From the IMG/VR virus record IMGVR_UViG_2562617113_000010: a stretch of 12,174 nt of DNA. The stretch is one strand, 5' to 3'. The translations under genes were made by a program, and so were the position numbers. Below are positions 9,988-12,174 of this stretch, one piece after another. Under the pieces are notes generated by a model that ran no database searches, was not told the DNA's origin, and saw nothing but the letters and a program-made list of their open reading frames with translations. Source of the DNA: a virus (Duplodnaviria; Heunggongvirae; Uroviricota; Caudoviricetes). The number at the start of each line of letters is the position of its first letter. The first letter of the stretch is position 1.

Positions 9988-10554
9988 TCAGGGCGATTCA
10001 TTGCTCTTATTTGCCGGAAATTTTCTATAAATGGTAGAAACGCCCACATCAAAAATCAGTGCAATACGCTGTCTTGATTCTCCGGCTTCGAGTAAACGTC
10101 CAATCTGTGCCCACTGTTCGGTAGTCAACTTAGGACGGCGTCCACCTACTCTGCCTTTAGCACGAGCTGCAGCAAGCCCCGCCCTGGTACGTTCAACTAT
10201 CAGTTCGCGTTCCATTTCAGCCAGGGCACCCATGACATGAAAAAAGAAACGGCCCATTGGGGTACTGGTATCAATACTGTCAGTCAGACTTCGGAAATTC
10301 ACGCCGCGCTGGCGCAACTCTTCTATCAGCGTAACAAGATGCCGCATACTGCGCCCCAACCTGTCCAGCTTCCAGACAACCAGTGTGTCACCTGCCGATA
10401 GTGTCCTGAGCAGTTTTTTAAGCCCCGGTCTGTCGGACTTAGTACCACTGATTTTGTCCTCAAAAATCCGCTCACATCCCGCGCAGTTCAGTGCATTACG
10501 TTGCAAATCGGTGTTCTGGTCATTTGTTGACACGCGTACATAGCCAATAAGCAT
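9988..10554 (-). CDS. Serine-recombinase DNA invertase (Hin/Gin/Cin/Pin family)
   Basis: Product MLIGYVRVSTNDQNTDLQRNAL...VVWKLDRLGRS...GRFFFHVMGALAEMERELI..., closely resembling e14 Pin and Mu Gin as recalled. The first Ser of VRVST is the presumed catalytic serine. Start placed at ATG 10552-10554 with AGGGGA 7 nt upstream; the ORF track begins two codons earlier at a TTG. Confidence 0.9.
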   Translation of the reverse strand: MLIGYVRVSTNDQNTDLQRNALNCAGCERIFEDKISGTKSDRPGLKKLLRTLSAGDTLVVWKLDRLGRSMRHLVTLIEELRQRGVNFRSLTDSIDTSTPMGRFFFHVMGALAEMERELIVERTRAGLAAARAKGRVGGRRPKLTTEQWAQIGRLLEAGESRQRIALIFDVGVSTIYRKFPANKSNESP

Positions 10555-10609
10555 GATCAATCCCCTGAATAAAAACCGGGGATGATGCCAGTTAGCCGTT
10601 ATCTCTGCA

Positions 10610-10635
10610 TTTTCATAAACGTTGGTTTGGGAGAA
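10610..10635. other. 26-bp invertase crossover site (gix/hix/cix-like), proximal end of the invertible segment
   Basis: TTTTCATAAACG TT GGTTTGGGAGAA: two imperfect 12-bp inverted half-sites around a 2-bp core, matching the recalled family pattern (TTnTCnnAAACC nn GGTTTnnGAnAA). Lies about 55 bp upstream of the invertase start and within the reading frame of the silent fibre cassette. Confidence 0.7.
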
Positions 10636-10968
10636 GCGGCAAAAATGTCTGCCGCTGCACTTGTCATTAACGGTAATACGTTGACAGCAAAAATCCCGGT
10701 AGTTATTAACGGCGTTAACAGGGAGTTAATTATTCAGGCATCTCAGATATCCAGCTCAGCAAGCAATGGTGTTATTACCTTCCCATCCGCATTTCCAAAT
10801 GCGTGTATTGCGATTTTTGCGCATGACTTTGCGACAGCGTCTACGGATTTATCGAATGTTCGGTTCTATATGCCAGGAAGAACATCTGCATCATGGACAG
10901 GGCAAAATATGAGTACAGGCAGTGAATCATCACCTGCAACATGGTGTTGGCTGGCAATTGGCTGGTAA
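10636..10968 (+). CDS. Silent alternative tail-fibre C-terminal cassette (Sv'-like), no start codon of its own
   Basis: Frame open through the crossover site to TAA at 10966-10968, encoding ...AAALVINGNTLTAKIPVVINGVNRELIIQ...ATWCWLAIGW*. The C-terminal W-x-A-[VI]-G motif is shared with the minus-strand fibre end (..CWWAVGE*). The ORF-track Met at 10582 is upstream of the site and unlikely to be a real start. Confidence 0.6.
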   Translation, partial: AAKMSAAALVINGNTLTAKIPVVINGVNRELIIQASQISSSASNGVITFPSAFPNACIAIFAHDFATASTDLSNVRFYMPGRTSASWTGQNMSTGSESSPATWCWLAIGW

Positions 10969-10980
10969 ATGGAGAAAACA

Positions 10981-11388
10981 ATGAAATATTTTACATCTGC
11001 TCCGATTGCTCTTTATAACTCCGATATATCCTCTTATATACCCGGTGACGGAGTAGAAATCAGTGATGAAGTATATGACGCACTTATTGCTGGTCAGGAG
11101 GCAGGAAAGAATATTACGGCAGACAGTAACGGACTGCCTGTACTGGCAGAACCCGCACAACCAACTCATGATGAATTGGTTGCAGCATCTGAATTAATGA
11201 AACAGCATCTGATTGATGCTGCTATGGCTTCCATCAGTCTGATTCAGCTGAAATTGCAGGCCGGACGTAAACTGACGCAGGCAGAAACAACCCGCCTTAA
11301 CGCTGTGCTGGATTACATTGACGCGGTGACAGCTACTGATACCAGCACCGCGCCAGATGTCATCTGGCCTGAACTGCCGGAGGCGTAG
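10981..11388 (+). CDS. Tail-fibre assembly protein (Tfa/gpU'-like), silent-orientation copy
   Basis: 135-aa ORF from the ATG at 10981, with GGAG 6 nt upstream. Directly follows the silent fibre cassette and ends ..DTSTAPDVIWPELPEA, resembling the other copy's C-terminus. Confidence 0.75.
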   Translation: MKYFTSAPIALYNSDISSYIPGDGVEISDEVYDALIAGQEAGKNITADSNGLPVLAEPAQPTHDELVAASELMKQHLIDAAMASISLIQLKLQAGRKLTQAETTRLNAVLDYIDAVTATDTSTAPDVIWPELPEA

Positions 11389-11803
11389 GCCATTCAGTAT
11401 CTGGCGCACCGGAAGTATCGACCAGCTCCAGTGCGTCCAGATAATCCAGCCACAAATTATATTGCGCCAGTTCATCACCTTTCAGACGACCAATAGCGGC
11501 TTTACCGGGCCATTGCTTACTGTTCATGTATTCGTTGGCCTGGTTAATTAGTAGCTGTCTTTCTGATTCAGTAATTTCAATAAGTTCTTCATTCGTGGGT
11601 GGAGGAATATCTGCCCACGCAGGCAGCCCATCATCTCCGGCAATACGGATTTTTCCTTGTGGCGGTTCAGCCATAAACTCACTGACAATATTTTGATTCA
11701 CTTCTTTCACATCTGATAAAACCCATCCCTCTGATTTATATTTATCAATCATATCCACAGGGAAAAAAGCATTATGTCTGGCACTATAAACATATTTGTT
11801 CAT
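11360..11803 (-). CDS. Tail-fibre assembly protein (Tfa/P2 gpG/Mu U-like), expressed orientation
   Basis: 147-aa ORF from the ATG at 11801-11803 (MNKYVYSARHNAFFP...), with GGGTGA upstream, directly after the fibre stop at 11824. C-terminus ..DTSGAPDTEWPTPPAVQAR. The ORF-track start at 11845 is a TTG overlapping the upstream gene. Confidence 0.75.
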   Translation of the reverse strand: MNKYVYSARHNAFFPVDMIDKYKSEGWVLSDVKEVNQNIVSEFMAEPPQGKIRIAGDDGLPAWADIPPPTNEELIEITESERQLLINQANEYMNSKQWPGKAAIGRLKGDELAQYNLWLDYLDALELVDTSGAPDTEWPTPPAVQAR

Positions 11804-11823
11804 ATAAATCACCCTGAATAAAA

Positions 11824-12174
11824 TTACTCGCCAACAGCCCACCAACAGTAATTCATGGTAACAGTTGGACTTGTCGAGGTTGTTCTAAAGGCAGAATAAA
11901 ACCCTGTTAACCCTGGCTCTTCAGTTGTCATCATAAAACCACGACCACTCCCGGCAGTTGAACCACCATCACCAGAATGTGAAAGCAAGGCAATATCAGC
12001 TTTTTTAGGGAAAGGTATATTAAATTCTACCCGTAGTGTCTGACTCGCAAGCGTAGGAGACACACGCCCACGACCATATTGCAGGATTTTCCCGTTGGGT
12101 AATTTCATCCATCCATCACCACTGGCAAAAGAGGCCATGTCCGGTATCTGATTTTCCCCTGTTCCCACATTTCG
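11824..12174 (-). CDS. Tail-fibre protein, C-terminal variable region in expressed orientation (5' part beyond window)
   Basis: Frame open to the window edge, stop TAA at 11824-11826. Encodes ...GDGWMKLPNGKILQYGRGRV...TVTMNYCWWAVGE*, Gly/Ser/Thr-rich as in fibre tips, co-oriented with and immediately upstream of the assembly gene. Confidence 0.65.
   Translation of the reverse strand, partial: RNVGTGENQIPDMASFASGDGWMKLPNGKILQYGRGRVSPTLASQTLRVEFNIPFPKKADIALLSHSGDGGSTAGSGRGFMMTTEEPGLTGFYSAFRTTSTSPTVTMNYCWWAVGE

Follow-up and report, generated by a model that had tools for sequence, protein, structure and literature searches.

A probable Pin/Gin-type two-state tail-fibre switch in a P2/186-like prophage of E. 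coli A38

Genes and features of the locus

The window, a stretch of 12,174 nt from the IMG/VR virus record IMGVR_UViG_2562617113_000010, is E. coli A38 sequence and is 100% identical to that genome over the switch region. The A38 element is an apparently complete, roughly 32-kb P2/186-like prophage. Its gene order in the RefSeq annotation is P2-like (ogr, D, U, T, E/E', FII, FI ... H, I, J, W, V ...), and its early region is 186-type. As in the late order of P2, an accessory slot separates the fibre genes from FI, and a late-promoter motif (TGT-N12-ACA, positions 9922-9939) lies upstream of FI. An earlier note on this DNA, made from the letters alone, had assigned an invertase and two fibre cassettes in this slot to the position of Z/fun in P2, and the P2 gene fun(Z) is indeed located between G and FI. 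Every element named in the earlier note is present where the note put it; the features of the region are listed in Table 1.

Table 1. Features of the A38 switch region, in window coordinates; L001 denotes coordinates on the A38 locus
Feature	Position	Strand	Description
DNA invertase	9988..10554	-	188 aa; Pfam Resolvase + HTH_7
Candidate recombinational enhancer	10465..10536	-	Invertase nt 19-90; homology to the P1 cin enhancer
Crossover site beside the invertase	10610..10635		26 bp, TTTTCATAAACG TT GGTTTGGGAGAA; identical to e14 site
Silent fibre C-terminus (Sv'-type tip)	10624/10636..10968	+	Gp53-like_C, E=1e-11
Silent-cassette chaperone	10981..11388	+	135 aa; Caudo_TAP, E=1.5e-22
Active-cassette chaperone	11360..11803	-	147 aa; Caudo_TAP, E=2.5e-29; RefSeq CDS L001 15461..15904
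Active fibre C-terminus (Sv-type tip)	11824..12174	-	Gp53-like_C; frame open to the window edge
Partner crossover site	window-equivalent 12184-12209 (L001 16285-16310)		Inverted; TTCTCGCATACC TT GGTTTGGGAGAA

Invertase gene and candidate enhancer

The invertase gene is intact. The mechanical open reading frame spans 9988..10560 on the minus strand, but its start is probably the ATG at 10554 rather than the TTG at 10560. The product matches Pfam Resolvase over residues 5-137 (E=2e-53) and HTH_7 over residues 140-183 (E=1.5e-15), and therefore has the serine-recombinase layout of an N-terminal resolvase domain with a Ser near position 9-10 and a C-terminal helix-turn-helix. The active-site Ser9 is located within the motif YVRVSTNDQ. 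The helix-B basic residues Lys46, Lys47, and Arg50 are present, which we take to be positions 47, 48, and 51 of Hin, since Hin has one extra N-terminal residue. In Hin, the invertase-specific basic residues of helix B are K47, R/K48, and R/K51 (PMC3798978). The protein is 85.3% identical to PinE of e14, 77.4% to Cin of P1, and 73.9% to Gin of Mu, and in a sequence search the solved Gin structures 3UJ3 and 4M6F match it over the full length (E=8e-93), bearing out its classification as a Pin/Gin-type invertase. The gene is transcribed away from the invertible segment, as are Mu gin and e14 pinE, whereas P1 cin points towards its segment.

Nucleotides 19-90 of the invertase gene align with the enhancer annotated in P1 cin (31678-31749 of the record, also nt 19-90 of that gene) at 56 of 72 positions; this identity of 78% is weak evidence alone, since the region encodes a very conserved peptide. 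Two Fis-core-like G-N13-C motifs are found at nt 22-36 and nt 71-85 of the gene (window 10533..10519 and 10484..10470). Both motif positions are kept in pin and gin, and the second also in cin, whose first Fis-like core departs from a strict G-N13-C. The stretch separating the two motifs contains ATTT and TAATG tracts (compare PMC3798978), and the candidate enhancer is centred about 120 bp away from the closer of the crossover sites. Synonymous-codon conservation is slightly raised in the candidate region (0.54 vs 0.43, from non-independent pairs). Nucleotides 19-90 are the probable recombinational enhancer, and the earlier placement of the enhancer in the 5' part of the gene is supported by homology to the P1 cin element rather than on functional grounds.

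Crossover sites

A crossover site adjoins the invertase gene on its upstream side, in the place proposed before, with its central TT dinucleotide at 10622-10623. Read as its reverse complement, this site agrees at 26 of 26 positions with the one next to pinE in e14. The earlier note had staked its reading on an inverted partner beyond position 12174, and such a partner is located 10 nt past the window end, within the uninterrupted reading frame of the fibre gene; it agrees with the corresponding e14 site at 23 of 26 positions. The two sites form part of an inverted repeat (I1) with 35-nt arms at 10610-10644 and 12175-12209 that are 86% identical, and they enclose a segment of 1574 bp. The central TT is common to both sites, and each reads TT towards the interior of the segment. 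The half-sites match the inner half-site at 8-12 of 12 positions, and the outer ones are degenerate (8/12 and 10/12). Only these two sites reach the threshold in the 30-kb locus, where shuffled sequences give an expectation of 0.15. The locus should therefore have two states, and a shufflon-type or other multi-site layout is ruled out.

Fibre gene, alternative tips, and chaperones

In A38, the fibre gene is a single continuous open reading frame of 473 aa (L001 17346..15925, minus strand; start at window-equivalent 13245), which rules out the truncated fibre gene of the RefSeq annotation. Its N-terminal domain matches Phage_tail_fib (E=6e-64). The gene is an H homologue, and its constant 5' part of about 350 codons ends in the 26-bp crossover site and matches the tail-collar fibre 9D93 in a sequence search of solved structures. 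The active tip forms the 3' end of this gene. The earlier statement that the minus-strand pair alone is fused to the fibre gene thus holds for the source genome, although the fusion is invisible within the window.

The two cassettes are opposed as described before: in each, a Gp53-like_C tip is followed by its own Caudo_TAP chaperone, and the two pairs converge, with a 29-nt overlap between the chaperone genes. The tips are about 110 aa long and 32% identical over 68 aa, a divergence at the sequence level that fits differing receptors; the chaperones are likewise 32% identical to each other. The first 21 nt of the silent tip, encoding GLGEAAK, are common to the active copy, and the variable part begins at 10645. 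The ATG of the plus-strand reading frame at 10582 falls outside the part that inverts and probably marks no genuine start.

The plus-strand tip is rare. It was found in 9 of 5426 E. coli genomes and was absent from 50,697 phage records searched with tBLASTn. When both tips were searched against the sequences of solved structures, nothing stronger emerged than a weak hit by the plus-strand tip on 4MTM (E=0.06), and neither tip resembled one with a known receptor in the searches of structures, reference phages, and phage records.

Both orientations among related prophages

Inversion of the segment in silico joins the plus-strand tip to the constant part in frame, giving a fibre of 464 aa vs the 473 aa found in A38, and the junction peptide LGLGEAAK is common to both orientations. 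The flipped state is present in a related prophage of strain MFDS1016424, with breakpoints at the crossover sites. Superposition of this prophage on A38 as found breaks the alignment at the two sites and leaves the middle piece reversed, whereas the A38 sequence flipped in silico is collinear with it over 5.3 kb at 94.9% identity. Among the genomes searched, the junction observed in A38 occurs in 47 and the predicted, flipped junction in 3. This ratio is mostly explained by the rarity of the plus-strand tip: in the 9 genomes that carry it, the tip is fused to the fibre gene in 4 and silent in 5.

Comparison with known invertible fibre segments

The closest relative of the A38 switch is Pin with the P segment of e14 in K-12 (stfP-tfaP / tfaE-stfE-pinE). 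The two share the order and orientation of constant part, tip, chaperone, reversed chaperone, reversed tip, and outward invertase, and the e14 chaperone genes have the same 29-nt overlap. The A38 segment is somewhat shorter than the P segment (1574 bp vs 1797 bp; PMC12529663), and our site scan places the two e14 sites about 1.8 kb apart. The chaperones of the two systems are partly similar (53% and 88% over parts), whereas the A38 tips have no detectable similarity to StfP and StfE. The e14 element is a cryptic lambdoid remnant, in contrast to the apparently complete A38 prophage. Inversion of the e14 P segment has been shown experimentally in K-12 (PMC4272514).

Gin with the G segment of Mu and Cin with the C segment of P1 belong to the same mechanism class. 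In these systems, as in A38, the crossover site is inside the fibre reading frame at the border between constant and variable parts, every variable part comes with a chaperone of its own, and the enhancer is within the 5' part of the invertase gene, where that of A38 is predicted. The half-site consensus TTnTCnnAAACC is common to the A38, Mu, and P1 systems. The central dinucleotide is TT/AA in A38, cix, and pix but TC/GA in gix, and the A38 segment, with its tips of about 110 aa, is half the size of the Mu G segment of about 3 kb. The tips and chaperones of A38 gave no tBLASTn match to the Mu G region (S/S'-U/U') at E<=1e-3, and the tips have no detectable similarity to those of Mu, P1, e14, or P2. 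The label "Mu G-segment-like" in the earlier note is therefore purely architectural; the architecture agrees with that of Mu, but homology of the cassettes does not extend to it, and the closest relative is the Pin/P segment of e14.

Several other P2-like elements carry the same type of switch, including Fels-2 (fin), two prophages of EPEC E2348/69, pro483, Cartapus, 500465-1, KP12, and ENT90. In these carriers, the segment occupies the same place as in A38, between the fibre/chaperone genes and FI, which is the Z/fun hotspot. Invertible fibre switches in P2-like prophages have already been described: inversion was documented by sequencing and PCR in the two EPEC E2348/69 prophages (PMC4272514), a comparison of genomes documented it in Fels-2 (PMC7953296), and invertases with inverted neighbours were noted as frequent at the P2 hotspot (bioRxiv 10.1101/2024.10.15.618418). 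One of the EPEC prophages has three sites and four states, in contrast to the two sites of A38. The invertase of KP12 is 99.5% identical to that of A38, and several phages align with parts of the A38 region at 87-94%; no phage record covering at least 80% of the region was found. The A38 pair of tips is an uncommon one.

A two-state tail-fibre switch and its alternatives

With an intact Pin/Gin-type invertase, paired inverted sites, two in-frame tips, and both orientations among related prophages, the A38 locus is very probably a two-state invertible tail-fibre switch. In the proposed mechanism, the serine invertase would bind both crossover sites and, assisted by host Fis on the enhancer in the first 90 nt of the invertase gene, would cut at the central TT and rotate the segment. 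The late-transcribed fibre gene would then end in either tip with the matching chaperone next to it, and the particles formed after induction would carry one of the two tips and recognise different receptors. We infer that the invertase is active in A38 and needs both Fis and the enhancer, and that each tip would confer its own host range. The earlier interpretation holds in every part open to sequence comparison, and its two receptor specificities and mixed population of orientations are predictions. A promoter and terminator scan of positions 9800-12174 returned 5 promoter-like sites vs 4.0 expected, no excess over chance; the scan is therefore uninformative about how the silent cassette and the invertase are expressed, and the scheme of expression is drawn by analogy from Mu and P2.

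The same architecture might instead be a frozen relic, in which flipping has been lost or has become irrelevant through a defective prophage or decayed sites or enhancer, leaving the minus-strand fibre permanent. We consider this unlikely. The degenerate outer half-sites would suit a relic, but the crossover site next to the invertase has exactly the sequence of the e14 site used for inversion in K-12 (PMC4272514), the invertase reading frame is intact with all conserved residues, and both cassettes are intact reading frames. The excess of the observed junction among genomes (47 vs 3) would also suit it; however, the excess mostly reflects how few genomes have the plus-strand tip, and the carriers are divided between the fused and silent states. 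Both the window and the RefSeq version of the A38 assembly carry a single frameshift in an essential tail gene, the former in the sheath gene (window position 8893) and the latter in gpD (window position 3258); if real, such a frameshift would make the phage defective. Since these are homopolymer-length differences that are discordant between the assembly versions, they are probably assembly errors.

A second alternative is that the switch serves the host, with one orientation yielding a protein derived from the fibre that keeps other phages from adsorbing, to the benefit of the lysogen. In a case reported for PinQ and StfE2, a flip of the e14 P segment gives rise to a chimeric protein that prevents T2 from adsorbing (PMC12529663), and the sites and invertase of A38 are e14-like. 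Three places in the A38 chromosome match the query region, so that additional loci of the Pin type may be present, and invertases acting across loci are plausible. However, the A38 segment lies in an apparently complete prophage with a full late gene set, unlike cryptic e14, and its tips are unrelated in sequence to StfE and StfP. From P2 biology, moreover, a fibre gene in the late morphogenetic cluster would not be expected to be expressed in the lysogen, and we regard a role of this kind as very improbable.

That the locus is no switch at all, but a product of mosaic recombination that left back-to-back tip modules beside an unrelated recombinase, would accord with tail-fibre regions being recombination hotspots and with the same module in an unrelated prophage, but this reading is effectively refuted by the inverted sites that coincide exactly with the module borders and agree in their central dinucleotides, the frame that survives inversion, the exact flip in a related prophage, and the site identical to that of e14.

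Significance and mobility of the module

As a tail-fibre switch, the A38 locus is well formed but unremarkable, one instance of a phage device already known, and for phage biology it adds one more interchangeable tip pair to a well-known mechanism. The switch accounts for the splitting of the fibre gene by automated annotation into a "pseudogene" and stray "gp53-like" reading frames, and assemblies of such prophages would each represent one of two co-existing states.

The near-identical occurrence of the module in an unrelated prophage bears on the spread of host-range cassettes. Conceivably, though we hold it doubtful, the 1.57-kb module moves in one piece among unrelated prophages, by exchange at the crossover sites. 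If the invertase or the conserved sites mediate such an exchange between prophages residing together, the sites would serve not only for inversion but also as portable docking points for host-range cassettes. The copy in question, 99.6% identical to the A38 module, is carried by strain ET245 in a different, lambda-J-type prophage. It adjoins an invertase that is 54% identical to that of A38, and the similarity to A38 ends within 10 nt of both crossover centres.

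Architecture of the tail-fibre locus

Except for three single-base differences in homopolymer length, the whole window corresponds to the RefSeq record of the E. coli A38 chromosome (NZ_CP028738.1), and positions 9900-12174 are 100% identical to it. This match allowed us to read beyond the window end on the A38 chromosomal locus (L001), where, past 8893, the window position equals the L001 position minus 4101. The inverted partner site, whose absence the earlier note had named as a refutation, was found there, and all the elements listed in that note (an invertase, a crossover site, two variable fibre C-termini, hereafter tips, and two tail-fibre assembly chaperones) are present.

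Features of the A38 fibre locus and homopolymer differences between the window and RefSeq A38
Feature	Position	Strand	Details
Invertase ORF	9988..10560	minus	likeliest start ATG 10554, 188 aa; Resolvase and HTH_7 domains
Crossover site beside invertase	10610-10635		TTTTCATAAACG-TT-GGTTTGGGAGAA
Silent tip	10636-10968	plus	Gp53-like_C
Silent-cassette chaperone	10981..11388	plus	Caudo_TAP
Active-cassette chaperone	11803..11360	minus	Caudo_TAP
Active tip	11824 to window edge	minus	Gp53-like_C
Fibre gene	L001 17346..15925 (window-equivalent 11824-13245)	minus	one uninterrupted 473-aa ORF; Phage_tail_fib N-terminal domain (E=6e-64) and Gp53-like_C tip
Partner site	window-equivalent 12184-12209, 10 bases past window end		TTCTCGCATACC-TT-GGTTTGGGAGAA on the minus strand
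Homopolymer indel	81-85		A5 (window)/A4 (RefSeq)
Homopolymer indel	3255-3258		C4/C5
Homopolymer indel	8893		T1/T2

A repeat search of L001 identified an inverted repeat of 35 nt whose arms (10610-10644 and window-equivalent 12175-12209) are 86% complementary, and a two-half-site scan for TTCTCCCAAACC-like pairs returned exactly these two sites in 30 kb, with 0.15 expected in shuffled sequence. Religation after the 180-degree rotation by serine invertases requires matching central dinucleotides; read towards the segment interior, both sites carry TT. In-silico inversion of the 1574 bp between the centres joins the plus-strand tip in frame to the constant part of the fibre gene, giving 464 aa, and the repeat itself supplies the codons of the junction peptide LGLGEAAK. 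Since only two sites occur in 30 kb, A38 has a two-state system, in contrast to the three-site arrangement of one EPEC prophage (PMC4272514).

The crossover site lies inside the fibre ORF, at the border between its constant and variable parts. In the RefSeq/PGAP annotation, the fibre gene appears as a truncated pseudogene, with 620 bases left unannotated before a separate "gp53-like" CDS. We rejected this truncation because the ORF runs uninterrupted through all 473 residues, and the split annotation is an artefact of a mosaic, invertible gene. With the ORF continuous, the minus-strand cassette is indeed joined to the fibre gene, as the earlier note had stated; a real truncation would have contradicted this. 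The tips show 32% identity across 68 residues, and that between the chaperones is also 32%; judging by sequence, the cassettes are distinct modules and not a duplication. The silent-cassette ORF is annotated from an ATG in the spacer between invertase and site (10582-10623, plus strand), outside the invertible segment, and the silent-cassette ORF likewise starts at a spacer ATG in the flipped-state prophage of strain MFDS1016424 and in Mu (Mup52).

Both orientations occur among E. coli genomes

The junction observed in A38 is found in 47 complete E. coli genomes, and the predicted inverted junction, at full length and 97.5-98.8% identity, in three. In the MFDS1016424 prophage, the fibre gene with the plus-type tip is followed by its chaperone, the reversed chaperone, the reversed minus-type tip, the invertase, and the sheath gene. 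When flipped in silico, A38 aligns with this prophage in a single collinear stretch (5.3 kb, 94.9%), whereas A38 as found aligns in three pieces, with the middle one reversed and breaks at both sites. This comparative evidence points to inversion at these sites across related prophages. The plus-strand tip is rare. Of 5426 complete E. coli genomes, nine carry it, at 98.5-100% identity; it is joined to a fibre gene in four of these and silent in five, and a search of 50,697 phage records found no copy.

Invertase and putative enhancer

The earlier assignment to the Pin/Gin type is confirmed by the Resolvase and HTH_7 domains, by 85.3%, 77.4%, and 73.9% identity to e14 PinE, P1 Cin, and Mu Gin, respectively, and by full-length matches to solved Gin structures (E=8e-93). 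The invertase carries the active-site Ser9, and its K46, K47, and R50 are the counterparts of the basic helix-B residues whose conservation McLean et al. described as unique to the invertase subclass (PMC3798978).

A Fis-type enhancer is probable in the 5' part of the invertase gene, as had been guessed, given its homology to the P1 Cin enhancer. The P1 record annotates that enhancer at nucleotides 19-90 of cin, and the homologous 72 nt in A38 (10536..10465) are identical at 56 positions. G-N13-C motifs are located at nucleotides 22-36 and 71-85 of the invertase gene, the first at a position common to pin and gin and the second at one common to pin, gin, and cin. Between them lie ATTT and TAATG tracts, resembling those described for the hin enhancer, where they also separate the Fis sites (PMC3798978). 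The putative enhancer is centred about 120 bp away from the closer crossover site, compared with about 100 bp in hin. Synonymous-codon conservation is slightly raised (0.54 vs 0.43 elsewhere) in this stretch, which encodes a highly conserved peptide.

Proposed mechanism and alternatives

The locus is very likely a standard Fis-assisted serine-invertase tail-fibre switch. By analogy with Mu, P1, and e14, from which we infer the enzymology and the host-range consequence, the invertase would be made at a low level and its dimers would bind both crossover sites; enhancer-bound Fis would then assemble the dimers into an active tetramer on supercoiled DNA, and the segment would invert. During lytic growth, transcription from a late promoter would run through the constant part of the fibre gene and on into the tip and chaperone then in line with it, and the resulting mixed burst of particles would have two receptor specificities. 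The fibre gene lies within the late morphogenetic cluster, with the H operon promoter outside the window.

It is improbable that the architecture is a frozen relic no longer functioning in A38. The A38 orientation is that of the assembled sequence, and each assembly version has one tail-gene frameshift: the window has an intact gpD and a frameshifted sheath gene FI (343-aa ORF, 8814..9845), and RefSeq shows the reverse, an intact sheath gene with gpD flagged as frameshifted. However, these frameshifts are homopolymer-length differences on which the two versions disagree, probably polishing errors, and every component of the switch is intact. A switch serving the host against other phages, a role that PinQ and the e14 segment are reported to play against T2 (PMC12529663), is unlikely, as the A38 prophage is apparently complete and its fibre gene sits among the clustered late genes. 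The sites, the reading frame, and the flip seen in nature exclude that the modules came to lie together by chance.

Relation to known systems

By sequence, the closest characterised relative is e14 Pin with its P segment rather than Mu, since the invertase identity is highest to PinE and the neighbouring site agrees at 26/26 positions with that beside e14 pinE, the other site matching its e14 counterpart at 23/26. The description "G-segment-like" thus applies to the architecture alone, as neither tips nor chaperones match the Mu G region. The tips also gave no match to e14 or to the P1 and P2 stretches examined. The earlier note correctly placed the locus at the P2 Z/fun position; P2 has fun(Z) between G and FI.

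Goldberg et al. reported co-existing, PCR-confirmed orientations in two P2-like prophages of EPEC E2348/69, e14, and a Mu prophage (PMC4272514), and fibre inversion adjoining the pin homologue fin is known in Fels-2 (PMC7953296). According to a survey covering P2-like phages, a DNA invertase is "often" encoded in the Z/fun hotspot, and the genes next to it are inverted (bioRxiv 10.1101/2024.10.15.618418). Phages KP12 (invertase 99.5% identical), Cartapus, pro483, 500465-1, and ENT90 have the same gene set as A38. Therefore, the A38 switch is already known in kind, and its particularity is only the pair of tips.

Possible module exchange and prophage context

The same 1.57-kb module, 99.6% identical and corresponding to window 10610-12174 and beyond, occurs in strain ET245 (NZ_CP100978.1, locus L004, 3994-5593). 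The prophage that holds it is unrelated, has a DUF1983 (lambda J-like) gene upstream, and adjoins yciI and tonB; the invertase beside the module (182 aa) is only 54% identical to that of A38. Since the similarity stops within 10 nt of both crossover centres, the comparison suggests that the whole module may be exchanged between phages at its sites. Such exchange is an old idea in the field of tail-fibre mosaicism, of which ET245 offers a clean example.

Within the window, host ybjL is followed by a P2-like prophage's right end, which comprises ogr, D, U, T, E/E', FII, FI, and the switch region. Fibre, baseplate, lysis, head, and terminase genes lie beyond, followed by a 186-type early region (CI, CII, Fil, replication endonuclease) and an integrase adjoining rcdA; the prophage is apparently complete at about 32 kb. 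The aspartate:alanine antiporter gene ybjL (779-2464, plus strand) abuts the ogr end, and since the prophage sits between ybjL and rcdA, the right attachment site must lie within the gap of about 230 bp at 2465-2700. Upstream of FI, TGTGTCGTTATTCACACA (9922-9939) has the TGT-N12-ACA form that Ogr-family activators bind at P2 late promoters; it is located 49 nt past the stop codon of the invertase and about 85 nt before FI starts, matching in position the activator site that the P2 annotation shows ahead of FI. Beyond the window end, an additional gene of 235 aa, annotated as "terminase large subunit domain-containing" (L001 27555-28262), lies between the terminase ATPase and portal genes, a spot where in P2, presumably, P is directly followed by Q.
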